NCBI GenBank assembly: GCA_964436975.1
Contig: CAYTET010000008.1
Span: 1 to 22,428, forward strand
Source of the DNA: an uncultured Erysipelotrichaceae bacterium
Lineage (GTDB): Bacteria > Bacillota_I > Bacilli_A > Erysipelotrichales > Erysipelotrichaceae
DNA: 22,428 nt
Direction of reading: 5' to 3'
The notes beneath the pieces are model-generated. The model did not search any database. It was given only the letters and a program-made list of their open reading frames with translations, and was not told where the DNA came from. Both the position numbers and the translations under genes were made by a program. Position 1 is the first letter of the stretch. Every line of letters starts with the position of its first letter. This document shows positions 415-20,196 of this stretch, piece after piece.

Positions 415-428
415 AAGGAAGCTTAAAG

Positions 429-1220
429 ATGTATTTCACCAAACAATTACATAACGGTTACAATTCCTATATCGATGCAGCTGTTGATGATATGGGAACC
501 CAGATGGATGTCGGCCTGCTGCTGCTGGATGCAGATCAGACCTATCAGATCCATGACGAGCATAAAGAGACCGCCGTTCTGCTGTTTGCCGGTGACGTAG
601 ATATCAATTATGGTGATTTAGCGGTGCGGGCCGTCAGACAGGACTGCTTCCATCAGGAAGCCTACTGCCTGCTGGCCAGCGCTGGCACTTCCATTTCGCT
701 GAAAGCGCATACACACTGTGAAATCTACCTGCAGCAGACAGTCAATGAAAACCACTACGCCCCGGTCATGTATACCCCGGACAAAGTCCAGGTCCAGCAT
801 GCCGGAGCCAACGGCGAGCTGATGGGCTGCATGAGACGGGAAATCAAGACCTTCTTCGATTTTGACAATGCGCCTTTCTCCAATATGGTGTTAGGCGAAG
901 TGCTCAACTATCCCGGCAAGTGGTCATCCTATCCGCCGCATCATCATCCCCAGCCGGAAGTCTATTTCTACCGCTTCGATCATCCGCAGGGCTTCGGGGC
1001 CGGATTTGCCAACGGGCAGATCTACCAGACCGGCCAGAATGGACTTTCCGTCATCAACAACGGCTTCCATTCCCAGGTGGCCGCTCCGGGCTATGCGATG
1101 TGCTATGCCTGGGGAATCCGCCATCTTGACGGCAATCCCTGGCAGAAGACCCGGATTGATGATCCGGAACATGAATGGCTCTGGCAGGCTGATGCCAACG
1201 AGCATATTTATAAAGGCTGA
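429..1220 (+). CDS. iolB: 5-deoxy-glucuronate isomerase
   Basis: 263 aa. The cupin-type signature [20 protein letters not shown] and the overall length match the IolB/KduI family. There is an AAAAGGAAG RBS-like sequence upstream, and the gene sits between iolE-like and iolD. Confidence 0.85.
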
Positions 1221-1240
1221 GCGCCGAAAGGAGAATAAGG

Positions 1241-3169
1241 ATGAAAACTGTCAGACTTACCATGGCCCAGGCCCTGGTCCGTTTTCTGGAAAACCAGTAC
1301 ATTGCCTATGACGGCCAGCAGCACCCCTTTGTTGAGGGTGTCATCATGCTGCCGGGTCACGGCAATGTGGTCGGCTTAGGCCAGGCTTTGAATCAGGAAG
1401 CTCACCGCATGAAGGTGTGGATGGGCAAAAACGAGCAGGGCATGGCTCATACCGCCGTGGCCTTTGCCAAGCAGTGCAAACGTAAAAAGATTATCGCTGT
1501 GACCTCTTCGGTCGGCCCGGGGGCGGCCAATATGGTAACCGCGGCGGCCACCGCCACGGCCAACAACATTCCGGTGCTGATTCTGCCGGGTGATGTCTAT
1601 GCCTGCCGGCAGCCGGATCCGGTGCTGCAGCAGATTGAGCAGACCAATGATCTGTCGCTTTCGACTAATGATGCTTTCAAGGCCGTCTGCCGCTACTGGG
1701 ACCGCATTGTCAGACCCGAGCAGCTGATGAGTGCCATGATTTCCGCCATGCGGACACTGACTGATCCGGCCAATACCGGCGCTGTCTGCATCGCCATTCC
1801 CCAGGATGTCGAAGGGGAAGCCTATGACTATCCGGTCTCTTTCTTTGAAAAGAGAGTGCATCATCTGGCCCGGCGGCTGCCGGAGCCGGAAATCATCGAG
1901 CAGGCGGCTGAAGTTATCCGCAATGCCAAAAAGCCGCTGCTGATCTGCGGCGGCGGGGTCCGCTACAGCGAGGCCCATGCCGAATTCAAGGCTTTTGCCG
2001 AAGCGGCCAATATTCCCTTTGGCGAAACCCAGGCCGGCAAGGGCGCCGTGCTGTACGATCATCCGCTGAATCTGGGCGGCATCGGAGTCACCGGCTGTTC
2101 AGCCGCCAATGACATTGCCAAACAGGCTGATGTCATCATCGGCGTCGGCACCCGGTATACGGATTTCACGACTTCTTCCAAGTGGCTGTTTAAAGACAGC
2201 GCTAAATTTGTTAATATTAATGTATCAGATTTCCAGGCTTTGAAGATGAATGCGGCGGTGGCCGTGGTGGCGGATGCCAAGCGCGCCCTGCCGGAGCTGC
2301 AGAAGGCTCTGCAGGGCTACAAGGCCCCTTATACCACTGAAATCAAAAAAGCCCGGGATAAATGGTTTGCCGAATTAAAGCGGCTTGATAATATCAGTTT
2401 TGGTCCCAAATACGTGCCGGAAGTCAATGATGCCAATGCGGCTTCGGCGTTCCGGTTTGCCAAGGATATGGATGCTACGCTGACCCAGACCACTGTCGTC
2501 GGTCTGATCAACCAGGCCATTGATGCCGAAGATGTCATTATCGGCTCATCCGGCTCGCTGCCGGGCGATTTGCAGAGAATGTGGTGTGCCCGCAGTCTGG
2601 ATTCCTACAATATGGAGTACGGCTATTCCTGCATGGGTTATGAAATCAGCGGCGCCTTGGGCGTCAAATATGCCATCGGCAAGGACCATGATGTCTATGC
2701 CATGGTCGGTGACGGCAGCTTCACCATGCTGCATTCCGAGCTGCTGACAGCGGTGCAGGAGCATGAGAAGATCAATGTCTGTGTCTTCAACAACGCCAGC
2801 TTCGGCTGCATCAATAACCTGCAGGTCGGCCATGGCAATGATTCCTTATGCACGGAAGTCCGCTTCCGCGGTAAGGACGGCAAGCATTCCGGCAAGTTCA
2901 TTCCGGTTGACTTTGCCAAAATAGGCGAGGGCTACGGCTGCAAGTCTTACACCATCCATACCCTGGATGAGATGAAGCAGGCGCTGGCCGATGCCAAAAA
3001 GATTAAAGACCAGCCGGTTGTCTTTGACATCCGGGTTCTGCCCAAGAGCATGACTGAAGGCTACGGGTCCTGGTGGCGGGTCGGCGATACGGAAGTATCC
3101 AAGAACCCGAAGAATGTGGAAGCTTATCAGGATCATCTGAAGCACGTTAAAGACGCGCGCAAATTCTAA
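1241..3169 (+). CDS. iolD: 3D-(3,5/4)-trihydroxycyclohexane-1,2-dione acylhydrolase (thiamine-diphosphate enzyme)
   Basis: 642 aa. The N-terminus [21 protein letters not shown] and the blocks [51 protein letters not shown] and ETQAGKG..HPLNLGG parallel Bacillus subtilis IolD as I recall it. A TPP-binding GDGSF...NN motif is present. RBS AAAGGAGAA. Confidence 0.9.
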
Positions 3170-3189
3170 AAAAAGGGAGATACACAAAT

Positions 3190-4221
3190 ATGGAACATGT
3201 ATTACAGGTCGGTATCGTCGGCTGCGGCGCTATCGGCAAGGATCACTGCCGCCGCATCATTGAAAAAGTGCCCGGAGCCACCGTTGTCGCTGTCAGCGAT
3301 TACAATGCGGCTGCGGCCGATGAAACGGCTGCCAAGTACGGCATTAAATCCTTTGGCAATGACTGCAAGGGCATGATCGCCGATCCGTCAGTTGAAGCGG
3401 TTGTCATCACTTCAATTGATCCGACCCATCATGAGTATGTCATGGAAGTGCTGAAGCATAAGAAGTGGTGCTTCTGTGAAAAACCGCTGTCCCAGAATGC
3501 CAAGGACTGTGAGGAGATCATTGCGGAAGAGCAGAAGATCGGCCACCGCCTTGTCCAGGTCGGCTTTATGAGAAGATATGACCGCGGCTATGCTGAAATG
3601 AAGCGGATTATTGATTCCGGTGCCATCGGCAAGCCGTTAGTCATCAAGGCCTGCCACCGCAATGTTGCCCAGGGTCCCGGATTCAAGACCGAAAACGGCA
3701 TCACCAACGTCGCTATCCATGAACTGGATATCTGCCGCTGGCTGCTGAATGATGAGTATCAGGATGCCCAGGTGGTCAGAGTCCGCCAGTCATCCAATTC
3801 AACCAAGGGCTATGACAACCCGCAGGTTGTCCTGCTGAGAACCAAGAACAACTGCTTCATCGATGTTGAAGTCCAGGTTGCCGACGGCTACGGCTATGAT
3901 ATCCAGTGCGAAGTCGTCTGCGAAAACGGCACTGTCAAGCTGCCTGATCCGATGGCGGTTGTCAGAAGAGCCAGACCCGACCTCACCAAGGAACCGTTTA
4001 TTGAACAGCCGATCATGACCGACTGGAAAGAGCGCTTCATTGAAGCTTATGACATTGAGCTGTGTGACTGGGTTGATGCCATTGCCAAGGGCAAGCTGAC
4101 CGGACCTTCCGTCTGGGACGGCTATGTGGCCTGCGTGGCCGGTGATGCCTGCAATGCATCCCGCGGCACTTCGACTTTCTTACCGGTGAATACTATCGAA
4201 AAACCGGAAATGTATAAGTAG
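3190..4221 (+). CDS. iolG: myo-inositol 2-dehydrogenase (Gfo/Idh/MocA family)
   Basis: 343 aa. It has an N-terminal Rossmann GIVGCGAIGKDH motif. The blocks FCEKPL, RLVQVGFMRRYDRGY, HRN, GYGYDIQCEVVCENGTVKLPDP and GPSVWDGY closely parallel B. subtilis IolG from memory. Confidence 0.85.
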   Translation: MEHVLQVGIVGCGAIGKDHCRRIIEKVPGATVVAVSDYNAAAADETAAKYGIKSFGNDCKGMIADPSVEAVVITSIDPTHHEYVMEVLKHKKWCFCEKPLSQNAKDCEEIIAEEQKIGHRLVQVGFMRRYDRGYAEMKRIIDSGAIGKPLVIKACHRNVAQGPGFKTENGITNVAIHELDICRWLLNDEYQDAQVVRVRQSSNSTKGYDNPQVVLLRTKNNCFIDVEVQVADGYGYDIQCEVVCENGTVKLPDPMAVVRRARPDLTKEPFIEQPIMTDWKERFIEAYDIELCDWVDAIAKGKLTGPSVWDGYVACVAGDACNASRGTSTFLPVNTIEKPEMYK

Positions 4222-4285: not shown

Positions 4286-4299
4286 TGCAAACGTTTGAA
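4286..4299. promoter_or_regulatory. LacI-family operator-like palindrome TGCAAACGTTTGAA upstream of the ABC permease
   Basis: The 10-bp perfect palindrome CAAACGTTTG (4288-4297) extends to a 14-mer with one mismatched pair. It lies about 32 bp upstream of the preferred permease start at 4331. The AAACGTTT core is typical of LacI/PurR/RbsR-type operators. Confidence 0.45.
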
Positions 4300-4330
4300 T
4301 GAATTTTCATGGAAAAGGAAAGGAGCAGAA

Positions 4331-6157
4331 ATGAGCAAAAAAAAGCAGATTAAACATCCGCTAACAAAGAAGCGTCTTAAGAATTTGATCAAGAGTGTGC
4401 TTACCAATCCGTTCAATCTGATTGTCTTCATTACCCTGATTGCTTTGTTCTGTCTGATTGTCATCCCTCTGCTGCAGATGGTTTCAAATACTTTCATCGT
4501 TGCCAAATCCGAGGTGCGCCGCATCGGCCTGCCGGCTGGCAGTTTCACTCTTTATTATTGGCGTTACATGCTGTTCAGCAGCATGTCGTCATCAGTGATG
4601 TGGACACCTTTAAAGCATTCACTGGTCATCGGCATCTTTACCGTTCTGGTATCGGTGCCGCTGGGATCCATTCTGGGCTGGATTGTGGTAAGAACTGATA
4701 TGCTGGGCAAGAAGCTTATCGGCATGCTGGTCGTCATTCCTTACATGATCCCGTCATGGTGCAAGGCCATGGCCTGGCTGTCGGTCTTCCGCAACCAGAC
4801 TTCCGGATCACTGGGCTTTCTGGCCGGACTGGGGCTTAACGTACCTGACTGGCTGGCCTACGGGCCGGTGGCGATAGTTCTGTGTATGTCGCTGCACTAT
4901 TATGCTTTCTCTTATATCAACGTTTCCTCGGCCTTAAGGTCCATCAACTCTGAACTGGAGGAAATGGGCGAGATATGCGGCGCTTCCAAGCCGCAGATCC
5001 TTAAGTCGATTACCATCCCGCTGGTTCTGCCCAGCGTGCTGTCGTCCATTGTCATGACCCTGTCCAAGTCAATCGGGGCCTACGGCGTGGCGGCCAATCT
5101 GGGCAACCGCATCGGCTATTTCACCCTGGCGACCAAGATGAAGACCTTCATCAACGGCACCACCTACAATGCCGTCGGCTATGCCATGAGCATTGTGCTG
5201 ATCGTGCTGGCAGCCCTGATCATCTTCGGCAACCAGAAGATCGTCGGTGTCCGCAAGTCCTATGCCACTATCGGCGGCAAGGGCGGCCGGACCAACCCGA
5301 TGAAGTTGGGCAGTGCCAAATACTGGCTGATGGGCTTTCTGGTTATCTTTCTGTTCTTCTCGATGGTTGCCCCGATGTTCATTCTGGTCATGGAAACATT
5401 CCAGATCACTACCGGCAACGGCTATGGCGCCGACAACCTGACGCTGTATTACTGGATAGGCACGGTTGACAATGCGCCCAAATACATAAACTATCCGGGT
5501 ATATTCCGCAACCCTAATTTCTTCAAGGCCTTATGGAATACTATCCGGCTGACCTTTACCGTTTCGATTCTTACCGCCATCTGCGGCCAGTTCTTAGGCT
5601 ATATCTCAACCCGCGGACGCGGCAAGTGGTACGGCACGCTGACGGAGCAGCTGGTCTTCATTCCCTATCTGATGAGCGGCGTGGCTTTCTCCGCCATGTA
5701 TTTCTCGATGTTCTCGGTTCCGCATCTGGGCGGCCTGATTCCGTCGCTTTACGGCACCTTCGCCCTGATTGTGCTGACATCAACGGTCAAGCATTTCCCG
5801 TTTGCCAGCCGCACCGGCACAGCCAACATGATGCAGATTTCCACCGAACTGGAGGAATCCGCCACCATCAACGGAGCCAATTTCTGGCAGCGCATGGGCA
5901 AGATTGTCCTGCCGCTGGCCAAAAACGGCTTTATCTCCGGGTTTATGCTGACGTTTATCAGCGTGGCTAAGGAACTGGACCTGATCATCATCATGATGAC
6001 CCAGGAGACCCAGACCCTGTCCTATGTGGCTTTCACTTATTCACAGGATGGCTACCCCCAGATGTCAGATGCGATTTCAGTATGTGTCCTGCTGTTTATC
6101 CTGGTCTGCTATATCATCGCCAACAAACTGGGTGCTGATATCGGCAAGAGCTGGTAA
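4331..6157 (+). CDS. ABC transporter permease, fused two-domain type (iron(III)/AfuB/FbpB-like)
   Basis: About 608 aa with many TM helices. There are two EAA-loop motifs (EEMGEICGASKPQILKSITIPL and EESATINGANFWQRMGKIVLPL), showing an internal duplication of the binding-protein-dependent permease domain. The start at 4331 (MSKKKQ) is preferred over 4295 because AAGGAGC lies 7 nt upstream. Confidence 0.85.
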   Translation: MSKKKQIKHPLTKKRLKNLIKSVLTNPFNLIVFITLIALFCLIVIPLLQMVSNTFIVAKSEVRRIGLPAGSFTLYYWRYMLFSSMSSSVMWTPLKHSLVIGIFTVLVSVPLGSILGWIVVRTDMLGKKLIGMLVVIPYMIPSWCKAMAWLSVFRNQTSGSLGFLAGLGLNVPDWLAYGPVAIVLCMSLHYYAFSYINVSSALRSINSELEEMGEICGASKPQILKSITIPLVLPSVLSSIVMTLSKSIGAYGVAANLGNRIGYFTLATKMKTFINGTTYNAVGYAMSIVLIVLAALIIFGNQKIVGVRKSYATIGGKGGRTNPMKLGSAKYWLMGFLVIFLFFSMVAPMFILVMETFQITTGNGYGADNLTLYYWIGTVDNAPKYINYPGIFRNPNFFKALWNTIRLTFTVSILTAICGQFLGYISTRGRGKWYGTLTEQLVFIPYLMSGVAFSAMYFSMFSVPHLGGLIPSLYGTFALIVLTSTVKHFPFASRTGTANMMQISTELEESATINGANFWQRMGKIVLPLAKNGFISGFMLTFISVAKELDLIIIMMTQETQTLSYVAFTYSQDGYPQMSDAISVCVLLFILVCYIIANKLGADIGKSW

Positions 6158-6182
6158 TGGCTAGGAAGAGAAAGGAAACAAT

Positions 6183-7301
6183 ATGAGCAGAATCGAACTA
6201 AAGCACATTGATAAATTCTACGGTGAAAACCATGTTCTGCGCGATCTCAATCTGACTATCGAAGACGGCGACTTCATGACGCTGCTGGGTCCGTCAGGCT
6301 GTGGAAAGACCACGACATTAAGAGTTATTTCCGGTTTGGAAGAGCCGCAGAATGGTACAATGACTATAGACGGTGTTGAGATGATCAATGCCGCCGATGC
6401 ATACTTTGCCGAGCCCAGCAAAAGAGGGCTGAATCTGGTTTTCCAGTCTTATGCCCTGTGGCCGCACATGACGGTCAAGGAGAATATCGCCTTTGGTCTG
6501 AAGATTCAGAAACTGCCTAAGGCTGAAGTTGAAGCCCGCGTCAAGGATGCGCTGCGGATGATGCGGATCGAGGAATACATCGACCGCTATCCCAACGAAC
6601 TTTCCGGCGGCCAGCAGCAGCGTGTCGCTATTGCCCGCGCTGTGGCCTCCAATCCCAAGCTGCTGCTGCTGGATGAGCCTTTGAGCAATCTGGACGCCCG
6701 GCTGCGCATTGACATGCGCTCGGAGCTGCAGCGGCTGCATCATGAATTGAAGACGACAATTATCTATGTCACCCATGACCAGGTCGAAGCTCTGACCATG
6801 TCAACCAAGATTGCCCTGTTCAAAGAGGGTGAACTGAGTCAGGTGGCCACGCCCATGGAGCTGTACCGCAACCCGATTGACCTGCAGGCCGCCGATTTCA
6901 TCGGCAACCCGCGGATCAACTTCTTAAAAGGCGATGCGGAAATGAAGGGCGGCAAGCTGCATGTTCACTGCGAACTGCAGGATTACGTCTTTGACAAGGA
7001 AGACATGACCGATGAGCCGATTCCAGAAGGAAACTTTGCGGTAGTGGTAGCCATCCGGCCGGAGCAGGTTCACATTGAACAGCAGGCCAGTGCGGACACC
7101 ATGCCGGTTGAGGTTTATGCTTCCCAGCCGGCCGGTTCGGAAACCCTGGTTTCCTTAAGAGCCGGTTCATCGGATTTCTTATCCAAGGAGATTGGTCTGG
7201 CGGAATATAAGATCGGCCAGCAGGTCAATGTCAGAGTCAATCCCAAGCGCGTCAATATCTATGATGCCGCTTCAACCCGTTTGATCAAACGCGCTCAGTA
7301 A
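6183..7301 (+). CDS. ABC transporter ATP-binding protein (MalK/FbpC/PotA-like, with a C-terminal TOBE-like domain)
   Basis: Walker [10 protein letters not shown], signature [14 protein letters not shown], Walker [13 protein letters not shown], and H-loop THDQ. A roughly 130-aa C-terminal regulatory/OB-like extension is present. Confidence 0.9.
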
Positions 7302-7400
7302 GCCGGGCCCAGCCAGCCGGTATTACTGGAATAAACGCTTGATATAGCTTAGGGAAGTATTTTCAGCGCTAAAGCTGAAAGAAAGGAGAAATGTCAGTTT

Positions 7401-8639
7401 ATGAAGAAGTTTAGTGTTCTGTTAGTTGTTGCCATGATGCTGCTGACGGCTCTGTCCGGCTGCACATTTGGCACCGGCACCGGCGGCAAGACCGTTGATG
7501 CCCAGTTGGGTCCTATCTACGATGATTACAGTGATATGACCGATGAGCAGCTTTATGAATTAGCCCAGAAAGAGGGCGGCCAGATCAATATCTATGCCAC
7601 CTCTTCCAAGATGTTGAAAGAGGAAGAACCTTTTGAAACATTGTATCCGGGTCTGGATGTTGTCGTTACCGACTTAGACCAGGACGAAGTTCTGCAGAAG
7701 GCCGTTACCGAGCATAAGACCGGAAATATCACCGGTGATGTTCTGCAGGCCAAAGATGTCAACGGCGACGTTTTCTACAACTATTATGAGGAAGGCATTG
7801 TTGAGACATTCTATCCTAAAGATCTGTGCGCCTATATTGACGAAGATCTGCTGAAGTATGGTTATCCGCTGTATGCCGGCGAAGCTTTCTGGTTCTATAA
7901 CACCGAAGCTTTCCCTGACGGCTCCCCGCTGACCAACTGGTGGCAGCTGCTTGAGACCAATGCCGACGGCACCCAGAAGTTTATCATCTACACCAAGGAA
8001 ATCGGCCAGGAAACGTCTTATCTGTCCCTGTTTGCCAGTTTCATTGTCAATTCCGATCAGATGGCCGCAGCCTACAAGGAAGAATACGGCAAGGATCTGG
8101 AATACACCTATGATGCTTCGGCCTTTGATTTTGAAGCTCCGAAGAACAATGCCGGTGTCGAATTCTTATGGCGCTTCAGCCAGCTGAAGATGACATTCAT
8201 CGGCGATGGTGATGAATTGGTCTTAGCCGTCAATAACGGCAAGAGCACCGAGCATCCTACTGTTGCGTTATGCTCAGCCGGCAAGCTGGAAAACCGTGAT
8301 AAATCCGGTTATGCCATTGCCTGGTGCACCAATCTGAAGCCTTATACAGGTCTGAAGTATTGCGAATATCTGTATGTTGTCAAAGGCTGTGACAACCCGG
8401 CCGGCGCCCGTCTGTTCATCCGCTATATCACGGGTTCAGGCGATGACGGCAGCGGTTTGAAGCCGTTTACCAAGGTTGGCAACTGGCCGGTCCGCAGTGA
8501 TGTCAAGGATAAGAAGAATGAGATCACCCTTGATGAGGCCGGTGCTATTGATGCCGATCTGAAGAGCATCTATGATCAGTTCATTGATACTCAGGATATG
8601 TGGAATTACTGGCTGGATAAGAATCCCAATATGAAATAA
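7401..8639 (+). CDS. ABC transporter substrate-binding lipoprotein (family-1, iron(III)/AfuA-like fold)
   Basis: The signal peptide has a lipobox (LTALSGC) followed by a Gly/Thr linker. QINIYATSS...YPGLDVVVTDL resembles the N-terminal lobe of Fbp/Afu/thiamine-type binding proteins. It is the last gene of the permease-ATPase-SBP unit. Confidence 0.8.
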   Translation: MKKFSVLLVVAMMLLTALSGCTFGTGTGGKTVDAQLGPIYDDYSDMTDEQLYELAQKEGGQINIYATSSKMLKEEEPFETLYPGLDVVVTDLDQDEVLQKAVTEHKTGNITGDVLQAKDVNGDVFYNYYEEGIVETFYPKDLCAYIDEDLLKYGYPLYAGEAFWFYNTEAFPDGSPLTNWWQLLETNADGTQKFIIYTKEIGQETSYLSLFASFIVNSDQMAAAYKEEYGKDLEYTYDASAFDFEAPKNNAGVEFLWRFSQLKMTFIGDGDELVLAVNNGKSTEHPTVALCSAGKLENRDKSGYAIAWCTNLKPYTGLKYCEYLYVVKGCDNPAGARLFIRYITGSGDDGSGLKPFTKVGNWPVRSDVKDKKNEITLDEAGAIDADLKSIYDQFIDTQDMWNYWLDKNPNMK

Positions 8640-10277: not shown

Positions 10278-11030
10278 ATGATTACTACGGTGATGTTTGA
10301 TATGGGCGGAACGCTCGAGGATATCTGTGTTGATGAAGCCTCTAAGCAGGCCGCTAACAGGCAGCTTTATAATATTCTGCTGGACTGCGGCATGGCGGCT
10401 GATACCGACCCGGCGGTTCTGCGCCAGCAGACTGAAAAAGGCTGGATCGACTATGGCTGTTACCGCGACAGCGTTGATGTCGAACTGAAGCCGGAGCATA
10501 TCTGGTGCGATTATGTACTGAAGGGCTTTGACGTCGATATGGCCAAAGTCAAGGCTAACAGCGAAAGAATCGCCAAGATGTGGGAATTAACTTATTATCA
10601 CCGTTCGCTCAGACCGCGCGTGGCGGAAATGCTGGAAGGTCTGCAGTCATTAGGCCTGCAGCTGGGCGTCATCAGCAATACGGCCGCCATGTACCAGGTC
10701 TTCTCTTCGCTGCAGGAGTACGGCATCCGCGATTATTTCAAGGATGTGACCCTGTCATCGGTGACCGGACTGCGCAAGCCCTGCCCCGACATCTTTGAAG
10801 TGTCCCTGCACCAGCTGCAGGCTTCAGCGGATGAGTGCTTCTATGTGGGCGATACCATTTCCCGGGATATTGTCGGTTCCAAGCGGGCCGGCTTTGCCGG
10901 AGCCATCCAGATCTATTCCCATCTGACGGCCATGAAGGATATCGCGGATAAATACGAGTTCAAGCCTGACTATGTCGTCGAAGACATCTATGATGTCTAC
11001 CCGCTGCTGAAAAAAGTCTTAGGCAAATAA
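10278..11030 (+). CDS. HAD-superfamily hydrolase, subfamily IA-like (paralogue A)
   Basis: Motif I FDMGGTL (nucleophile Asp8, Gly at +2), motif II GVISNT, motif III RKP, and motif IV YVGDTISRD. An alpha-helical cap insert lies between motifs I and II. Confidence 0.85.
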   Translation: MITTVMFDMGGTLEDICVDEASKQAANRQLYNILLDCGMAADTDPAVLRQQTEKGWIDYGCYRDSVDVELKPEHIWCDYVLKGFDVDMAKVKANSERIAKMWELTYYHRSLRPRVAEMLEGLQSLGLQLGVISNTAAMYQVFSSLQEYGIRDYFKDVTLSSVTGLRKPCPDIFEVSLHQLQASADECFYVGDTISRDIVGSKRAGFAGAIQIYSHLTAMKDIADKYEFKPDYVVEDIYDVYPLLKKVLGK

Positions 11031-11050
11031 AAACCCGTGGTTACGGGTTT
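11031..11050. terminator. Bidirectional hairpin between the convergent HAD-A and lacI-family genes
   Basis: AAACCCGT (11031-11038), loop GGTT, then ACGGGTTT (11043-11050). On the minus strand it is followed by TTTTTATTT, making a good terminator for the regulator. It overlaps the regulator stop codon. Confidence 0.6.
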
Positions 11051-12081
11051 GAAGGCTGATCCGGCTTAGGATAGCCGGCTAACGGAGCGCAGGTCGACCG
11101 CTTCATCAGCGAGGGCATCAGGATCCGGTGGGTATAGCCGTCCAGATTATTCTGGATCTTGTCGACCAGGATATTGACGCATACGGATGCCAGCATTTTG
11201 ACCGGCTGTTCGATAGTGGACAGGTTGATCCGCGGCAGGGAGCTGTCCCGGATATTGTCAAAGCCTAAAAGGGAAAGATCTTCCGGGATCCGCAGCCCGA
11301 CTTCCTCAGCGGCCTGCATGACGCCAAAGGCGTTGGTATCGGTTGAGGCAAAGACGGCCGTGTAATTGCGGGGCTGGCTGAACATCTGCTTGGCCAGCAG
11401 ATAGCCGTATTTAGTGGATGAAGAAGTGAAAGTGTTGTTGCAGTACTGCGGATTCAGGCCTAAATCCTTGCAGGCCGCCGCATAGCCTTCCGCTCTGAGC
11501 TGATGGGTTATGCTGGCCTTGCGCTGGCCGAAGTACAGAATACGGCGGTGGCCCAGGCTGTACAGATATTCCACACCCATGTAGGCCCCGCGGAAATTAT
11601 CCACGGAAACATAGTTTTCCGGAGCATCGCGCATGTTCTCCCCGACAAAGACAGTGGGGACCTGGGCAATCCGCTCGCACAGATTGTCATAGCTTTCCGG
11701 TCCGACCGGCACCAGGATGATGCCGTCGACCTGCCGGCCGACCATCAGTTCAAAAAGGCTGTTCTCCTGCTGGGGGTCATAAGCCGAATTGCACAGAATG
11801 ATATTGTAACCCATGTTGCGGGCCTGCCGGTCGATATGATAGGCCAGTTCGGACATATAGGGGTTGTTGACCCCGGGCAGAATAAGACCCAGCAGCTTGG
11901 TGCTTTTGATGACCATGGCCCGGGCCACGGTATTGACCGTGTAGTTCATGTCCTTGCAGGCGGCAATAATGCGCTGGTAGGCATCCGGACTGACATTGGC
12001 ACTGCCGGACAAGGCCCGTGAGACCGTTGAATAGGATACGCCGGCCTGTTTGGCCACGTCCTTGATGGTAATTCGTTTCAT
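11041..12081 (-). CDS. LacI-family transcriptional regulator
   Basis: The N-terminal HTH is MKRITIKDVAKQAGVSYSTVSRALSG...VSPDAYQRI, followed by a periplasmic-binding-protein-like sugar-binding core. The start at 12081 (GGAGC RBS upstream) is preferred over the ORF-track start at 12162, which would add 27 non-conserved residues. Confidence 0.9.
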   Translation of the reverse strand: MKRITIKDVAKQAGVSYSTVSRALSGSANVSPDAYQRIIAACKDMNYTVNTVARAMVIKSTKLLGLILPGVNNPYMSELAYHIDRQARNMGYNIILCNSAYDPQQENSLFELMVGRQVDGIILVPVGPESYDNLCERIAQVPTVFVGENMRDAPENYVSVDNFRGAYMGVEYLYSLGHRRILYFGQRKASITHQLRAEGYAAACKDLGLNPQYCNNTFTSSSTKYGYLLAKQMFSQPRNYTAVFASTDTNAFGVMQAAEEVGLRIPEDLSLLGFDNIRDSSLPRINLSTIEQPVKMLASVCVNILVDKIQNNLDGYTHRILMPSLMKRSTCAPLAGYPKPDQPSNP

Positions 12082-12280
12082 GATAGCTCCTGTTATGCAA
12101 CAAAATGCACACGATAAACAGATTTTATGACATTTATTTGCATAATACAAGAGCCCCTGCAAATTGTTTCATTGCTCAAAACGGCCCAAAAAGGCCGTAA
12201 ATACCGTATTTTACGCTATAAAACAAGCTTGAAAAAGAACAGTCATGCCATAAATCAGGCATCTATTATGACTGAATTTG

Positions 12281-12296
12281 ATAAAAACGTTTTCGT
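12281..12296. promoter_or_regulatory. LacI-family operator-like site ATAAAAACGTTTTCGT upstream of the HAD operon
   Basis: The perfect 10-bp palindrome AAAACGTTTT (12284-12293) lies 30 bp upstream of the HAD-B start codon, in the divergent regulator/operon intergenic region. It shares the AAACGTTT core with the sites at 4286 and 10191. Confidence 0.4.
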
Positions 12297-12322
12297 TAAA
12301 CCACTTCAGGAGGGGGAAAGTT

Positions 12323-13078
12323 ATGATTAAAGCCGTCTTGTTTGACCTGGGAGGAACCCTGCACACGGCCAGCAGTCCGGCCGGCCGGCCGGAATGGTTT
12401 GCCCGCCGGCTGATTGACCGGCTGGCTGATTATGGCATCATTATTGATGTTTCCACCGCCCAGATGGCCGAAATACTGCATAATAACAGTGAGGAATACA
12501 AGCATGCCAGCGAAATTGATCTCAAGGAACTGCCGGCCGCCCGTATCTGGAGCGAATATTACCTGCGCCAGTTCAACATCAGTGAAAAGACCCTGGCTCC
12601 GATTGCCGAAGAACTGAGTTTTATTTATGATTACGAAAGACCGCTGGTCATGCGCCGGCCCCATCTGAATGAAACGATGAGCGGGTTAGCGGCAATGGGC
12701 ATAAGAATGGGCATGATTTCCAATATCATCTCCCGGTCGGTCGTTTCCCACTTTCTGATGGAATATGACATCGAAAAGTATATGGAGTGCATCGTCATGT
12801 CTTCGGTGACCGGTATCCGCAAGCCTTCGGCTGAAATATTCCGGGTTGCGGAAAAGGACATGGACCTGGCTCCCGAGGAGATGGCCTATGTCGGCGATAC
12901 GATTTCGCGGGATGTGCGCGGCGTGCGCAATGCCGGCTGGAAGATGATGATCCAGATCAACAACCCGGCGATTGCCTTTCGGGATGCCGGTCTGGACAAG
13001 GATGCGTATAAGCCTGACTATATGATCAGCGATCTCAGTGAAGTCGTTGAAATCATCCGTCAGGCCAATCAGCAGTAA
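12323..13078 (+). CDS. HAD-superfamily hydrolase (paralogue B)
   Basis: Motifs FDLGGTL, GMISNI, RKP and YVGDTISRD. The start at 12323 (MIKAVLFDLGGTL) is chosen because AGGAGGGGG lies 7-15 nt upstream and motif I then sits at the usual N-terminal position. Its closest relative in the window is paralogue A. Confidence 0.85.
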   Translation: MIKAVLFDLGGTLHTASSPAGRPEWFARRLIDRLADYGIIIDVSTAQMAEILHNNSEEYKHASEIDLKELPAARIWSEYYLRQFNISEKTLAPIAEELSFIYDYERPLVMRRPHLNETMSGLAAMGIRMGMISNIISRSVVSHFLMEYDIEKYMECIVMSSVTGIRKPSAEIFRVAEKDMDLAPEEMAYVGDTISRDVRGVRNAGWKMMIQINNPAIAFRDAGLDKDAYKPDYMISDLSEVVEIIRQANQQ

Positions 13079-13114
13079 AAAACATGGCAGCCAGATAAAT
13101 AGGGAGGTAAAACC

Positions 13115-13849
13115 ATGAAAAACAATATTGATACCATTTTCTTCGATGTCGGCAATACCCTGCGTTATGTTGTTCCCGATGCCGCCTTTTCGGCCCAGGC
13201 CGATCAGCAGCTGATGGAGCTGGTCAAGACAACCGCCAGCCACGAAGAGTTTTTTGCCGAACTGAATGCCAACTGGAAGAAATACCGCAAATGGGCCAAG
13301 GACAATCTGCTGGATGTCTCCGAGATGGAACTGTGGATGCAGTTTCTGCTGCCGGAATATGATCCGGCCATCATTGCCCCCAATGCCCCCCGGCTGACCC
13401 GGCTGTGGCGCGACCATGACGGCCGCCGGGTGCCGCATGATGATGTGGATTCTACATTGAGAGAACTGACCAACCGCGGCTACAAACTGGGCATCATTGC
13501 CAACACCATTACCGAAACCGAGATTCCGGACTGGATGTGCCATGACCAGGTTGCCGACTGTTTCAAGACGGTCATTCTGTCCTCCAAGGTCAGACTGCGC
13601 AAGCCTGATCCGGCCATCTATCTGCTGGGCGCCCGCTGCATCGATTCCAAACCGGAAGACTGCGCCTATGTGGGCGACAATGCCGTCCGGGATGTGGACG
13701 GGGCGGTTGATTCCGGCTATGGCGCCATGATCCTGTTTGAGTTTGAAGGTGTGGCCGTTGACCGGGACGGGGTATCACCCAATCACCAGCCGGATTACAA
13801 GATCGGCCATATCGGCGATCTGCTCGATCTGTTCGGGCCCAGAGGTTAA
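13115..13849 (+). CDS. HAD-superfamily hydrolase (paralogue C)
   Basis: Motifs FDVGNTL, GIIANT (Ala where the motif II Ser/Thr is expected), RKPDPAIY and YVGDNAVRD. RBS GGGAGG. It shares RGYKLGII and the YRKW cap motif with paralogues D and E. Confidence 0.85.
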   Translation: MKNNIDTIFFDVGNTLRYVVPDAAFSAQADQQLMELVKTTASHEEFFAELNANWKKYRKWAKDNLLDVSEMELWMQFLLPEYDPAIIAPNAPRLTRLWRDHDGRRVPHDDVDSTLRELTNRGYKLGIIANTITETEIPDWMCHDQVADCFKTVILSSKVRLRKPDPAIYLLGARCIDSKPEDCAYVGDNAVRDVDGAVDSGYGAMILFEFEGVAVDRDGVSPNHQPDYKIGHIGDLLDLFGPRG

Positions 13850-13852
13850 ATA

Positions 13853-14575
13853 ATGAAAGACATCAAGGGTGTTTTCTTTGATTTAGGCGGGACGCTGCGG
13901 ATTGCCCAGGAAGTTCCCGAACATATTCAGAAAGCCAAAAGGGCCATGGCTGATCTGGCCGGCGTTACTGATGAAAATGCCTTTTTGGAGATGATTGATA
14001 AACGCTATGAGCCCTACCGCAAATGGGCCATGACGGAATATAAGGAATGCGGGGATTTTGATCTGTGGCATATCTGGCTGCTGCCGGACATGCCGGAAGA
14101 AGAACTGCGGCCGGTCTGCCACCAGCTGACTTACCAGTACCGCCAGGTCAAAGGCCTGCGCCATCTGGTCACCCATGGTCTTGAAGTCATCAAAACGCTG
14201 CACCAGCGCGGCTACAAGCTGGGCATCATTTCCAATCTGATCGGTGAAAACGAAGTCGCCGACTGGCTCAGGGATGATGATCTGGCCCAATATTTTGATT
14301 CGGTAGTCCTTTCATCCATCTGCCATATCCGCAAGCCGGATCCGGCTATCTATGATATCGGCTGTGCCGAATTAGGTCTGAAGCCGGGCCAGTGCGCTTC
14401 GGTGGCCGACAATCTGAGCCGGGATTTTACCGGGGCTAAGGCGGCCGGCATCGGCGTCAATATTCTGTTCATCAGTCCGGAAAAGCTGGCCGGCAAAACG
14501 ATAACTGAAGAAAACCGCCCGGACATTATCATCAATGATTTCCTTGAATTGCTGGACCTGCCTTTTCTGCAGTAA
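13853..14575 (+). CDS. HAD-superfamily hydrolase (paralogue D)
   Basis: Motifs FDLGGTL, GIISNL, RKPDPAIY and SVADNLSRD. The start is 3 nt after the stop of paralogue C. Confidence 0.85.
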   Translation: MKDIKGVFFDLGGTLRIAQEVPEHIQKAKRAMADLAGVTDENAFLEMIDKRYEPYRKWAMTEYKECGDFDLWHIWLLPDMPEEELRPVCHQLTYQYRQVKGLRHLVTHGLEVIKTLHQRGYKLGIISNLIGENEVADWLRDDDLAQYFDSVVLSSICHIRKPDPAIYDIGCAELGLKPGQCASVADNLSRDFTGAKAAGIGVNILFISPEKLAGKTITEENRPDIIINDFLELLDLPFLQ

Positions 14576-14589
14576 GGAGAAGAGATAAA

Positions 14590-15318
14590 ATGGCTGATAT
14601 AAACACGCTGTTCTTCGATTTAGGCGATACCTTCCGCGTCATCCGTCATGATGATGAATACTCCCGGGCGGCCCGGGCGCTGATCTGTGAAAAACTGGGG
14701 GTTACCGAAGATCCGGATAAGTTCTATCATGAAGTCATCGAGCCGCGCTATGACAAATACCGGCAGTGGGCTTTGACTTATTACTGTGAAGCCCCGGAAA
14801 AAGTGCTCTGGACCCGCTGGCTGGCGTATGATTATCCTAAGGATGTCGTCGAGGCGGCGGCTTCCGAGCTGACTTTTGCCTACCGGCGCACCAAAGGGGA
14901 GCGCGTGGTTACCGAAGGCGGCATTGAAACGGTTAAGGAGCTGTTTGCCCGCGGCTATAAGCTGGGCATCATCTCCGATCTGGTCGGTGTCCATGAGGTT
15001 GACCAGTGGCTTGACCACGACCAGCTGCGTCCTTATTTCAAGACGGTGCAGCAGTCCTCGCTCTGTCTGATCCGCAAGCCCCATCCGGCGATTTACTATT
15101 ATGCCATGAATGAGATCGGCTCATCCGGGGAGCAGTGCTGCTTTGTCGGCGATAACCTTAACCGCGATATCATCGGGGCCAAGGCGGCCGGCATCGGCAT
15201 GACCATCGGGGTGCGCTATCCGGGCAAAAAAGAGCAGGAAATCACCCCGGAAAATAAGCCTGATCAGTTTATAACGCATTTTTCGCAGCTGCTGGATATT
15301 TTCCCAGCGCGCGGTTAG
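14590..15318 (+). CDS. HAD-superfamily hydrolase (paralogue E)
   Basis: Motifs FDLGDTF, GIISDL, RKPHPAIY and FVGDNLNRD. RBS AAGGAGAAG. Confidence 0.85.
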   Translation: MADINTLFFDLGDTFRVIRHDDEYSRAARALICEKLGVTEDPDKFYHEVIEPRYDKYRQWALTYYCEAPEKVLWTRWLAYDYPKDVVEAAASELTFAYRRTKGERVVTEGGIETVKELFARGYKLGIISDLVGVHEVDQWLDHDQLRPYFKTVQQSSLCLIRKPHPAIYYYAMNEIGSSGEQCCFVGDNLNRDIIGAKAAGIGMTIGVRYPGKKEQEITPENKPDQFITHFSQLLDIFPARG

Positions 15319-15332
15319 GAGGCAGATAGGAT

Positions 15333-16898
15333 ATGGAAAAAGAAATGAATCATGGCGGTGCGGCCCTGGCCAAAGCCGTCCGTAAAGCTTATGAGCAGAA
15401 TCAGACGGATTACTCACTGGCCCCGCTGTGTCTGGTTGATGAAAACGACCAGCCGGTGGGCAAAATAAAAGACGGCGATGCGGTTATCTTCTGCTGCCGG
15501 CGGGGCGAAAGGGAAGTTGAACTGACCGAAGCCTTCACCCAGCCTGATTTTGACAAGTTTGACCGGCCGTATCTGAGTCAGCTGCAGTTCGGCATTCTGA
15601 CGATGTATCATGAAAAATTCAAGAATCTGCCGATTGCCTTTGCCCCGGAGAAGGTGGTCATGCCGCTGGCCCAGGTCATAGCCCAGGCCGGCCTGACCCA
15701 GTTTCACTGCTCGGAATCCGAAAAGTTTGCCCATGTAACCTTCTTCTTCAACGGCGGCTATAACCAGCCCTTTGAAAAAGAGACGGATACCTGTGTGCCT
15801 TCACCCAAGGGCGTGCCGTTTGACACCGTGCCGGAATTAAGCCTGCCGGCCGTCGCCGCCAAGGTGGAAGAAGCCGTTGATACCGGCTATGATTTCATTC
15901 TGACTAACTTTGCCAACGGCGATGTTATCGGCCATACTTCCAACAGCGATGCCAAACTGCTGGCCGCCGCGGCCATCAGCAAGTATGTTGATAAAGTCGC
16001 CCATTATGCGCAGGATCACGGCTATTTGGTTGCCATCACGGCTGACCACGGCAACATTGAAACCCTGCGGACAGAAGCCGGCAAGCCGCATGTGGCCCAT
16101 ACCTGCAATCTGGTGCCCTTTATCGTGCTGGATCCGCAGCACCGGGAGATCAAGCTGCGGGACGGCTCCCTGAAGGATGTTGCCCCGACAGTGCTGTCGG
16201 TGCTGGGTCTGGATGCCCCGGCGGAAATGAGCGGACAGTCCCTGATTGAAACGGCTGATATCCATAACAAGAAAATGATACTGATTATTCTGGATGGCTG
16301 GGGTCTGGGCAGCCAGGATGACAATGACGCCATCTATCTGGCGGATACACCGGGCTGGGACAAACTGATGGCGGATTATCCGCATTCCAGCTTAGCCGCC
16401 AGCGGCCTGTATGTCGGCCTGCAGGACGGCAAGCCGGGCAACTCCGAAGCCGGCCACTGCAATATGGGCGCCGGCCGGGTCGTCGAGCAGGATGATGTCC
16501 GCATGGACAATGCCATCAAAGACGGCTCTTTCAAGACCAATCCGGTTTTCCTGAAGCTGATCGACCATGCCAAACAGTGCGGCAGCCTGCATCTGATTGC
16601 GCTGCTGACCGAAAAGTCCAGCCACGGCTGCATCGCTTATCCGCTGATGCTGGCGGAAATGGCTAAAGAAGTTCCCCATGTCTATTTCCACATCATCTTT
16701 GACGGCCGCAGCACCGAACCGGGCAGTGCCCCGGCGCTGCTGGAAAAGCTGGATGGCCAACTGGCCCAGATTGGAACCGGCCTGGTGGTTGACGGCATCG
16801 GCCGCGGCATTATTCTGGACCGCGACGGCAACTATGCCCGCATTGAAACGGGCTACCGGGAACTGACCGAAGGTAAGGGGATCCCTTATCATTTATAG
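15333..16898 (+). CDS. Circularly permuted homologue of 2,3-bisphosphoglycerate-independent phosphoglycerate mutase (alkaline-phosphatase superfamily phosphomutase; substrate unknown)
   Basis: 521 aa. Residues 1-305 align with the C-terminal ~290 aa of canonical iPGM through the blocks DGDAVIFCCRRGER, ESEKFAHVTFFFNGG, NFANGDVIGHT, ITADHGN, KPHVAHTCNLVPF and LKDVAPTVLSVLGL. Residues 313-521 align with the canonical N-terminal ~225 aa through KKMILIILDGWG, GNSEAGHCNMGAGR, SLHLIALL, FDGRS and GRGIILDRD. RBS AGGAGG. Confidence 0.85.
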   Translation: MEKEMNHGGAALAKAVRKAYEQNQTDYSLAPLCLVDENDQPVGKIKDGDAVIFCCRRGEREVELTEAFTQPDFDKFDRPYLSQLQFGILTMYHEKFKNLPIAFAPEKVVMPLAQVIAQAGLTQFHCSESEKFAHVTFFFNGGYNQPFEKETDTCVPSPKGVPFDTVPELSLPAVAAKVEEAVDTGYDFILTNFANGDVIGHTSNSDAKLLAAAAISKYVDKVAHYAQDHGYLVAITADHGNIETLRTEAGKPHVAHTCNLVPFIVLDPQHREIKLRDGSLKDVAPTVLSVLGLDAPAEMSGQSLIETADIHNKKMILIILDGWGLGSQDDNDAIYLADTPGWDKLMADYPHSSLAASGLYVGLQDGKPGNSEAGHCNMGAGRVVEQDDVRMDNAIKDGSFKTNPVFLKLIDHAKQCGSLHLIALLTEKSSHGCIAYPLMLAEMAKEVPHVYFHIIFDGRSTEPGSAPALLEKLDGQLAQIGTGLVVDGIGRGIILDRDGNYARIETGYRELTEGKGIPYHL

Positions 16899-16922: not shown

Positions 16923-17645
16923 ATGAATAGTGCAGTAGATTTATCCAGTCTGACCCTGACGCCCTGGGAGATTATCATCCGGCTGGCGGGGGCCATGGTA
17001 ATAGGGGCCATCATCGGCACCGAGCGGGAATACACCCACCGGCCGGCCGGCATGCGGACCCATATGCTGGTGGCGCTGGGATCATGCGCCGTAATGGTGA
17101 CCAGCCAGCTGATGTTTGTGCAGTATCACGCTTTCGGGGCTTCCCCGGATCCGGCCCGGCTGCCGGCGCAGGTTATCGCCGGGGTTGGCTTTTTAGGCGC
17201 CGGCACGATTTTAAGGGACGGCACCTCCATCAAGGGTCTGACCACGGCGGCCAGTGTCTGGGCGGTGGCCTGTCTGGGCATTGCCATCGGCGCCGGCTAT
17301 TATATTCTGGCGGTGGCCGGTACGGCCTGCATGCTGATAACGCTGACTTTCTTTGAGTGGCTGCAGAAAAAGCTGATCCACAGCCGCTATGAGACCTATC
17401 TGTTTCTGGTGCAGTCAACCAATGTCGTGGTGACCTTAGCCCAGATCAACAAGCTGGCCATCGAAGTCGAAGCTTCCGTCAGCAGCATCCAGGTCAATGA
17501 AATAAACGATAACGGCAACTACAGCATCAACTTCCGGACTAATTTTTCCGGCCGGCATGCCTCCACGCGGATGCAGCAGTTCTTAATGGATCTGACCAGT
17601 GATGAATGCACGGTCTCCATTAAATCGGAGCAGATCAGACTGTAG
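16923..17645 (+). CDS. MgtC/SapB-family membrane protein
   Basis: The N-terminal block IIRLAGAMVIGAIIGTEREYTHRPAGMRTHMLVALGS is the family signature. It has 4-5 TM helices followed by a soluble C-terminal domain. RBS AAAGGAGAA. Confidence 0.85.
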   Translation: MNSAVDLSSLTLTPWEIIIRLAGAMVIGAIIGTEREYTHRPAGMRTHMLVALGSCAVMVTSQLMFVQYHAFGASPDPARLPAQVIAGVGFLGAGTILRDGTSIKGLTTAASVWAVACLGIAIGAGYYILAVAGTACMLITLTFFEWLQKKLIHSRYETYLFLVQSTNVVVTLAQINKLAIEVEASVSSIQVNEINDNGNYSINFRTNFSGRHASTRMQQFLMDLTSDECTVSIKSEQIRL

Positions 17646-17737: not shown

Positions 17738-18622
17738 ATGAAGCAGCAATATGATTTAATGCTTGTCGGACCGGCTTCCCGGGACGAAAATATCGACTAT
17801 ACCGGGGCTGTCGACAAGTCCATCGGCGGGGCCGTGACGTTCTGCTCGGCTTCAGCCCAGGCGGCCAGCGGCAGTGTTTTTGCGGCAGTTGTCGCCGCCC
17901 CCAATGAGCCGGATGTCATGGATTCCATTATTCTGGATGATGATGACAAGATGCTGATTCCGTCTTCGGTAACCACCTCGATCCGCAACCAGTACTTCAC
18001 GGCGGACCGGGAAAGACGCGAGTCCAAGTGCATTGCCCAGTCTGATCCGGTCACCCCGGATAAGATTCCGGCCGGCCATTTCAAGATGTATCATTTAGCC
18101 GGACTTTTATACGGCGATTTCCCCAACGAGCTTATTGTTGATCTGGCATCCAAGGGCCAGCTGGCCGGGGATGCCCAGGGCTTTTTAAGACACAATGAAA
18201 ACGGGGCGATGGTTTTCCATGACTGGGCCGACAAAAAGGAAATGCTGAAGCACTTTGCCTTTCTGAAAACAGACGCTTTGGAAGCCCTGACTCTGACCGG
18301 CTTTGAAGACCGGGCCAAGGCAGCTGAACAGCTGTACCAGTGGGGGGCTAAAGAAGTTATGGTTTCCCATAACAGCGAGATAATGGTCTATGATGGCAAC
18401 AAGGTCTATACCTGCCCGATCAAAGCCCGCAACCTGTCCGGCCGGACCGGCCGGGGTGACACGACGACCGGGGCTTATCTGGCCCGCCGGCTGGACGGTG
18501 ATGACGTTGAAACAGCGCTGCTGTATGCGACCGCCTGTGTTTCTTTGAAGATGGAAAAAGTCGGCGTGTTCAGCCACAGCCGGCAGGATGTCTACGATTA
18601 TATTGCCCAGTTTTACCGCTGA
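17738..18622 (+). CDS. PfkB-family carbohydrate kinase (divergent)
   Basis: 294 aa. It has an N-terminal LMLVGPASRDENIDY...SIGGAV beta-strand/GG motif and a C-terminal PfkB signature-2-like GRTGRGDTTTGAYLA (the GxGD anion hole). RBS AAAGGAGA. Confidence 0.8.
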   Translation: MKQQYDLMLVGPASRDENIDYTGAVDKSIGGAVTFCSASAQAASGSVFAAVVAAPNEPDVMDSIILDDDDKMLIPSSVTTSIRNQYFTADRERRESKCIAQSDPVTPDKIPAGHFKMYHLAGLLYGDFPNELIVDLASKGQLAGDAQGFLRHNENGAMVFHDWADKKEMLKHFAFLKTDALEALTLTGFEDRAKAAEQLYQWGAKEVMVSHNSEIMVYDGNKVYTCPIKARNLSGRTGRGDTTTGAYLARRLDGDDVETALLYATACVSLKMEKVGVFSHSRQDVYDYIAQFYR

Positions 18623-18808: not shown

Positions 18809-20196
18809 ATGAAGGCGTGGGAATTGGAACGTCAGAATATGGACCACAGTGTACCGGTTCATATGGCCGACAACAACGAAGAAATATGGGAAGAGCAGAG
18901 CAATGGGCCGGAGCAGGCTCAGGATGCCACCATTAAGAATTACTGGGCCAGCAAGGTCCCGGGCTCACGGGCTTCCGAATCGATTATCATCGCCGCTGTC
19001 CAGGCCATGGAAAACCGCGGCTATTCTGTTAAAAACAGCGAAGACATGTGGCTGGCCGGACTGAGTGCGGTGGCCGGCGAAGACGTTGTCAGCATGCACA
19101 AAAACTACTATAAGATCATGCAGGCCTGCCTGCAGGCGGAAAAGGATGAAAGTTCGCCGTACTGGCAGCAGCATTTCTATGATACTTTTGAAGAATACGA
19201 AAAGGCCGTCAAATTTCCCCAGGCCCGCCCGGTTGACATGGGCAATATGCTGGTTGACAAGATCGAAGCCGGCTGGCTGGGCCAGATTATCGGCGGAGCC
19301 TACGGCACCTGTCTGGAAGGGTATACCACCGACAACATCATGAAAGCCTATCCGCATCTGGATATCTACCAGCGCAAGCCGAATACCTATAACGATGACA
19401 TTACTTATGAACTGGCCCTGCTGCTGGCTTATGAGGAGAACGGCAAAGCAACGACATCACGCGACATTGCCGACGAATGGGTCAGCCGGATTGCCTTTGG
19501 CTGGTCAGCCGAGGATATGGCGCTGCGCAATCTGCGCTGCGGTATGATGCCGCCGGAGTCCGGCCGTTTCAACAACCCTTATTATGAGTGGATCGGGGCC
19601 CAGATGCGCGGGGCGGTTTTGGGCCAGCTTTATCCGGGTGATCCGTACAATGCGGCCAAAGCGGCCTGGCAGGACGGCATTATCTCCCATGCCCGCAACG
19701 GTGTCTTGGGCGAAGTGTTCAATGCCATCATGGTGGCCATGGCTTTCTACCAGAATGATCTAGACAGCTGGTCAAGGATGCAGTGGCCCTGATGCCGGCC
19801 GACAGCGAATACGGCCAGGTCGTCCGGTTTGCTTTGGAGCAGTGTGAAAACAGCGCCGACTGGCTGACCGCCTGGCGGCCCTGCGAAAAGAAGTACGAGC
19901 GCTATAACTGGGTGCATGCCTATCCCAATGCCTGCGCCGAAGTGGTGGCCTTATGGTTCTGCCAGGATGATTTCACCAAACTGCTGGTTATTTCCGGCGG
20001 CTGCGGCCAGGACGTTGACTGCAATGCGGCTCAGATTGCTACCGTATGGGCAACCCGCAAGGGCAAACAGGCTATCCCGGCCTACTGGACCGAGCCTATC
20101 GGCGACCATCTGGATACCTATGTCCGCGGCTTAAAGCAGCTGAGCATCCGCCAGCTGGCCGTCCGGACGGCGGCTGTGGCAAACCACCTGAAATAA
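18809..20196 (+). pseudogene. ADP-ribosylglycohydrolase-family gene interrupted by a frameshift near 19760
   Basis: ORF 18809-19792 carries the N-terminal family block (WLGQIIGGAYGTCLEG). ORF 19783-20196, in a different frame, carries the C-terminal block (GGCGQDVDCNAAQIATVWA). The downstream frame is open from 19759 and reads RQLVKDAVALMPADSEY, continuing naturally from ...AFYQND in the upstream frame. Confidence 0.65.

Follow-up and report, generated by a model that had tools for sequence, protein, structure and literature searches.

A circularly permuted enzyme of the iPGM family with an altered substrate pocket, encoded in an inositol-linked gene cluster of gut bacteria

We describe an enzyme of the bacterial iPGM structural family, P0001, whose two halves are swapped by circular permutation, whose catalytic residues are intact, and in whose substrate pocket the canonical Asp154 has been replaced by a fixed Ser together with changes at neighbouring positions. 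It is encoded in a 22,428-nucleotide stretch of DNA from an uncultured Erysipelotrichaceae bacterium (contig CAYTET010000008.1, analysed as a whole and called the window below), where it belongs to a conserved gene cluster that co-occurs with the inositol-catabolic gene iolD, in a genome that carries a separate canonical iPGM. The link between this cluster and the inositol pathway is well supported. For the reaction and the substrate of the permuted enzyme we infer something more tentative, namely that P0001 is a phosphomutase for imported inositol phosphates, with iPGM-type chemistry retargeted, a reading to which we give about an even chance. The features of the window on which the argument draws are collected in Table 1.

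The permutation is seen directly in an alignment to the iPGM of B. stearothermophilus (1EJJ), in which residues 16-305 of P0001 correspond to 1EJJ residues 220-509 and residues 312-519 to 1EJJ residues 3-213. This bears out a preliminary description, made from the letters of the window, that had called the protein a permuted mutase. All of the motifs quoted there are found in a single ORF, and their pairings with canonical motifs agree with the 1EJJ alignment; the location assigned to them, 16605-16820, holds for TEKSSHGC and FDGRS and fails for CRRGER and for all of the metal and nucleophile motifs, which lie outside it. Set against GpmI/GpmM (TIGR01307; PDB 1EJJ/1O98, EC 5.4.2.12), to which it is about 35-39% identical in each half, P0001 has the same two-domain fold, Ser nucleophile, two-metal ligand set, Lys336, His123 and five substrate arginines, but its halves are swapped, with new termini in the transferase domain near residue 215, it carries eight fixed substitutions, and it is an accessory paralog in a non-glycolytic cluster.

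Profile and structure searches place the protein in the same family. Both PF06415 (the iPGM_N transferase domain) and PF01676 (the Metalloenzyme phosphatase domain) are far over their cut-offs. TIGR01307 reaches 465 bits, summed across two stretches, against a cut-off of 330.65, which is the likely source of the database name phosphoglycerate mutase; NF003897 stays under its cut-off (378 vs 862 bits). Two features of the GpmI equivalog, an Asp at position 154 and the canonical linear order of the chain, are absent from P0001. An AlphaFold2 model has a pLDDT of 87 and a pTM of 0.84, and the best Foldseek and VIA matches are iPGMs, each search aligning one half only and not the full permuted fold. 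At least 119 further proteins cover 97-100% of the length of P0001 at 67-81% identity. An assembly artefact or chimera is ruled out by the more than 120 homologs that are colinear over the full permuted length, together with the confident model.

Table 1. Features of the window discussed in the text (residue numbers of P0001 unless given as canonical).
Feature	Position	Strand	Basis
Myo-inositol catabolic genes iolE (partial), iolB, iolD, iolG	1-4221	+	profile search; identical order in G306
ABC importer: two-domain permease, ATPase, family-1-type solute-binding protein	4295-8639	+	conserved alongside mutase
Fifth HAD-IA hydrolase	10278-11030	+	profile matches
LacI-family regulator, divergent from HAD/mutase operon	11041-12162	-	locus annotation
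Four tandem HAD-IA hydrolases, immediately upstream of permuted gene	12278-15318	+	profile matches
P0001, circularly permuted iPGM-family enzyme, 521 aa	15333-16898	+	profile matches, 1EJJ alignment, AF2 model
Y27, replaces canonical Glu231 (116/127)	15411-15413	+	alignment
CRRGER: N259C, new Arg56 (F260R), R261 = R57, D263E, R264 = R60	15495-15512	+	alignment
Metal ligands D197, H201, D238, H239, H256 = canonical D403, H407, D444, H445, H462	15918-16103	+	alignment
GDVIGH	starts 15918	+	ORF
ADHGN	starts 16041	+	ORF
VAHT	starts 16092	+	ORF
Linker, aa ~306-311 (about six residues), canonical C-terminus to canonical N-terminus	16248-16265	+	match to 1EJJ breaks off after aa 305 and resumes at aa 312
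ILDG	starts 16287	+	ORF
Metal ligand D321 = canonical D12	16293-16295	+	alignment
GNSEAGH, nucleophile S371 = canonical Ser62	16437-16457	+	1EJJ alignment, homolog alignment
TEKSSHGC: His123 kept (H431); V122S, S124G, H125C	16608-16631	+	alignment
FDGRS	16698-16712	+	ORF
S460, replaces canonical Asp154; sole altered residue among nine published contacts	16710-16712	+	alignment
IGRGIILDRDGNY: R185 = R491, R191 = R497 kept; M189L, W195Y	16797-16835	+	alignment
MgtC-family membrane protein	16923-17645	+	profile match; in cluster of many relatives
PfkB kinase, homolog of PPi-dependent myo-inositol kinase TM0415, GRTGRGD motif	17738-18622	+	E 2e-37

The nucleophile Ser62, Lys336 and all seven metal ligands are kept in P0001 and are invariant in 120 close homologs as well as in distant permuted representatives. 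The preliminary description had expected as much of the nucleophile and the metal ligands, and by sequence the conservation supports an active phosphoserine/two-metal enzyme of the AlkP type. Nine substrate contacts have been published for iPGM (S62, H123, R153, D154, R185, R191, R261, R264 and K336; PMC3886921), and eight of them, among them His123, all five contact arginines and Lys336, are retained (S371, H431, R459, R491, R497, R57, R60 and K131). With eight of nine contacts kept, the earlier statement that Asp and His residues near the phosphate-binding ones have been exchanged overstates the change. The canonical set has Asp at position 154 in 126 of its 127 representatives; all 120 close homologs have Ser there, a constancy that rules out a sequencing error at this site. 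In the canonical enzyme we take D154 to be the general base for the acceptor hydroxyl.

The other altered motifs are equally constant. SSHGC, FDGRST and CCRRGERE are invariant across the 120 homologs, which share at least 67% identity, and therefore reflect neither drift nor sequencing error. The changes fixed in close homologs are D154S, E231Y, N259C, F260R, V122S, H128Y, M189L and W195Y, with F260R introducing a new invariant Arg that adjoins R261. Three further changes carry little weight, since canonical enzymes themselves vary at H125 (70/127) and at D119 (69/127; Glu in P0001) and D263E is conservative. Judged from the alignment, the pocket alteration is narrower than the listed motifs imply, with D154 to S460 as the decisive change; the loss of two acids (D154 and E231) and the gain of one Arg (F260R) would suggest a more anionic ligand. 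If we call canonical-conserved the 82 columns in which 90% or more of canonical enzymes agree, 66 of them are unchanged in the permuted set and 16 switch, in most cases to a different residue that is itself invariant. Switches are commoner in the transferase domain, at 10/28 against 6/54 (Fisher p about 0.016), and enriched around the seven contacts of that domain (p about 0.04), both being post hoc comparisons with approximate domain bounds; around all nine contacts the enrichment, also post hoc, is not significant (p = 0.39).

In a quick tree, a well-supported branch (SH-aLRT 99) separates the permuted proteins whose pocket is altered from the rest. Three further proteins, P0131, P0135 and P0182 (L032:4041-5585), are permuted yet have a canonical pocket, D154 included, and fall outside this branch. 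They rule out that permutation is always coupled to the pocket change, and hence permutation and retargeting are separable; they may be housekeeping enzymes or represent a stage through which the clade passed earlier. The node that bears on a single origin of the permutation has a support of 26 in the quick tree. The distribution of the permuted gene is patchy: it occurs in 2 of 200 and 2 of 250 genomes of two clostridial family samples, and no junction-spanning match was found in the 299 other scored genomes of the class to which the source genome belongs. The canonical-order iPGM of the source genome, which has GNVHSH, LDGRD and FRGDR, is split across contigs C74 and C3; among 19 carrier genomes, a single query detected a canonical iPGM clearly in 10, partially in 2 and not in 7.

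Further from P0001 the neighbourhoods diversify. Independent members of 55% identity adjoin iolB and iolG/iolE-like genes; they also have as neighbours an ApgM-type mutase and P-loop kinases, both adjacent to the permuted gene in L025, L028 and L049. In the Chloroflexia-type clusters L025:11575-15217 and L028:2442-4873, the genes after the permuted one encode the ApgM-type mutase and uridine-kinase/PRK-like P-loop proteins of about 398 aa with a long N-terminal extension. Altered-pocket members that are more distant still adjoin glycerophosphodiester phosphodiesterases (GDPDs), other ABC importers or unrelated genes, so that several organophosphates are probably handled across the wider clade. 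In P0123, which is GDPD-linked, the pocket is a different one (DGSD). At L029:8073-19093 two different permuted iPGM paralogs, each beside a GDPD, flank a related ABC importer, and one of the two has R153 replaced by Ser and D154 kept.

The best solved relative of the kinase encoded downstream of P0001 is TM0415, which PMC5931981 presents as a PPi-dependent myo-inositol kinase whose true acceptor may be a related compound. Of the PPi-donor signature, K171, R229, R232 and M266 are identical and F221 is replaced by Ile, and we count the signature as present; in an alignment to 5YSP all four myo-inositol contacts (D11, N78, Q141 and R145) are kept, and GRTGRGDT is present in all listed homologs. 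In all five HADs motif I has the DxGxT form, without the second Asp that is usual there, and relatives keep it so. For the solute-binding protein, searches of PDB and Atlas gave no ligand clue, and its single-sequence fold has a pLDDT of 36. A search of the source genome found no membrane pyrophosphatase. At 18809-20196 of the window an ADP-ribosylglycohydrolase-family gene is divided between two ORFs of 327 and 137 aa that overlap, which suggests a frameshift. Elsewhere in the source genome (G000) lie paralogs of the importer's permease, ATPase and binding protein, on contigs C5 and C95, and of the MBL-fold gene, on C10.

Much of this arrangement recurs in a context set of 20 GTDB loci, mostly from rumen and gut Oscillospiraceae, Lachnospiraceae and other Clostridia, with one from Chloroflexia. 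A HAD gene stands immediately upstream of the permuted gene in all 20; a TM0415-like PfkB kinase is near it in 17, an ABC importer in 13 (several of the remaining loci being cut by contig ends), and a membrane pyrophosphatase, beside the kinase, in 10. The inositol gene iolD is over cut-off in 18 of the 19 carrier genomes and in five of them it is on the same contig, no more than about 15 kb away. Blind family samples contain iolD in 3 of 200 and 34 of 250 genomes, and all 4 carriers there are iolD-positive; the naive chance of this overlap, about 3e-6, overstates the case because the genomes are not independent. Because the carriers are relatives of one another and the cluster moves as one unit, this co-occurrence ties the cluster, not the permuted gene alone, to inositol. 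The Chloroflexia carrier is without iolD; there the permuted gene lies beside an ApgM-type mutase and hexuronate genes, and the cluster adds a PiT phosphate transporter. In one locus (L015:6690-7682) the array is interrupted, between two of its HAD genes, by a gene for a PTP-like phytase (PF14566) whose HCxAGxGR loop is intact and which has no evident signal peptide; this single case accounts for the one carrier genome in 24 in which such an enzyme was found. A sugar-isomerase-like TIM barrel gene (PF01261), possibly encoding an inosose isomerase or epimerase, follows the kinase at L012:10036-10902, L022:13243-14106 and L041:5340-6266.

In the scheme that we favour, the ABC importer would take up phytate-derived inositol phosphates and the five HAD phosphatases would strip phosphates from them. 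The permuted two-metal enzyme, acting in the cytoplasm, would receive a phosphate on S371, allow the substrate to reorient, and return the phosphate to a neighbouring ring hydroxyl in a ping-pong reaction. Isomers that the HADs or the PPi-type kinase cannot use, for example those bearing the phytase-resistant 2-phosphate, would in this way be turned into usable ones, and free myo-inositol would then pass to IolG/E/D/B. The imported compound, the substrate, a mutase rather than a hydrolase outcome and the ring positions interconverted are, in this scheme, what we infer. Precedent in the superfamily for a ring-shaped substrate comes from DeoB, which has an AlkP core, forms a phospho-enzyme intermediate and acts on a cyclic sugar phosphate. 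With P0001, DeoB aligns over the core alone (Z about 10.6-10.9, 16-20% identity), the transferase domain of P0001 being that of iPGM_N, and DeoB family HMMs are far under cut-off (32.8 vs 254 and 25.6 vs 256 bits). Ins(2)P accumulates in bacterial phytate breakdown (PMC7618129) and is a natural candidate substrate of the permuted enzyme. A bolder form of this scheme would make it an energy-conserving intracellular phytate pathway: the mutase would funnel isomers such as Ins(2)P to one that the kinase accepts, the kinase would run in reverse (InsP + Pi -> inositol + PPi), and the PPi would drive a membrane H+/Na+-pyrophosphatase. This bolder form seems to us unlikely.

Two properties of the protein count against the favoured scheme. 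The canonical iPGM pocket is small and buried (PMC3886921), and with the five contact arginines kept a C3 acid phosphate still fits, which weighs against an inositol phosphate; the loss of D154 could also impair mutase activity. Further points against the scheme are the Chloroflexia carrier without iolD, the distant altered-pocket members beside GDPDs or unrelated genes, and the non-significant enrichment around all nine contacts. The preliminary description had proposed phosphomutase chemistry on a substrate other than 2-/3-phosphoglycerate. Its view of the substrate is favoured by the loss of D154, the separate canonical iPGM and the non-glycolytic, inositol-linked cluster, although the loss of D154 does not settle the mutase outcome and may instead mean a phosphatase. 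Without D154, water could hydrolyse the phosphoserine as in alkaline phosphatase, which would make P0001 an inositol-phosphate phosphatase and the sixth phosphatase of the cluster. The position of the gene is in keeping with that role, since at nearly every locus it comes straight after four HAD hydrolases, as is an AlkP-type metal centre left intact while the presumed acceptor-activating Asp is gone, and the inositol association is explained equally well. A hydrolase would, however, sit oddly with the strict conservation of the whole transferase domain and its arginines and with five HADs already in the cluster, and we consider it rather unlikely.

A mutase or transferase could also act on a phosphate that is not a cyclitol, be it of the bisphosphoglycerate/cDPG type, a phospho-sugar acid produced when inositol is broken down, or a glycerol phosphate, for which glycerophosphoinositol could be one source. 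P0001 retains His123 and all five contact arginines, the loss of D154 with the gain of an Arg would suit a second phosphate, and neighbours of a matching kind do occur, ApgM and P-loop kinases in three loci and GDPDs in L029. Yet the annotated neighbours in close loci include no cDPG synthetase, 2PG kinase or GDPD, the pocket of the GDPD-linked P0123 differs, and the inositol-kinase homolog and the phytase insertion would be left unexplained; we hold this account to be improbable. Were P0001 simply a second phosphoglycerate mutase of the ordinary kind, sharing the regulation of the cluster and with a neutral permutation and neutral substitutions, its TIGR01307 score, its eight retained contacts, its 66 unchanged columns and the 7 of 19 carriers with no second copy detected by one query would all follow naturally. 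What makes this decidedly unlikely is the presence of D154 in nearly every canonical enzyme and in the three permuted proteins with a canonical pocket, the canonical iPGM already present in the source genome, the lack of any core glycolytic gene among the annotated neighbours of the permuted gene, and a distribution too patchy to reach the other scored genomes of the class. A catalytically dead protein with a binding or regulatory role, to which the loss of one presumed catalytic Asp might point, can hardly be right: mapping the pocket onto 1EJJ, a check proposed in the preliminary description, finds neither the Ser nor the metal ligands lost, these and Lys336 are invariant, and 194 alignment columns are invariant across the 120 homologs.

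Two known systems help to place the cluster. The myo-inositol cluster of Thermotoga maritima, as far as the available text of PMC5931981 describes it, shares the TM0415-type PPi kinase and the inositol-catabolic context; here the kinase is accompanied by five HADs, the permuted mutase, MgtC and, in many loci, a membrane PPase, none of which that text mentions. The gut bacterium Mitsuokella jalaludinii converts phytate to inositol, with Ins(2)P as an intermediate, and then catabolises it (PMC7618129), but it does so with a periplasmic phytase, whereas among the 24 carrier genomes a PTP-like phytase was found in the single one given above. The word mutase is absent from two recent papers on gut inositol and phytate, as it is from PMC7618129, and the literature searched, with most subscription journals outside its scope, held nothing relevant on a permuted iPGM or an inositol-phosphate mutase.

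The database name phosphoglycerate mutase is probably wrong for these permuted proteins. If the favoured reading is true, P0001 would be an inositol-phosphate mutase, an activity of which we found no report, for gut bacteria or otherwise, and the cluster would be a candidate route by which rumen and gut Clostridia, mostly without a PTP-like phytase, import phytate products and dephosphorylate them; gut isolates with phytase activity yet no known phytase gene have been described (PMC12838507). Because some permuted proteins have a canonical pocket, the family also lets the effect of circular permutation be told apart, in a natural setting, from that of a change of specificity.
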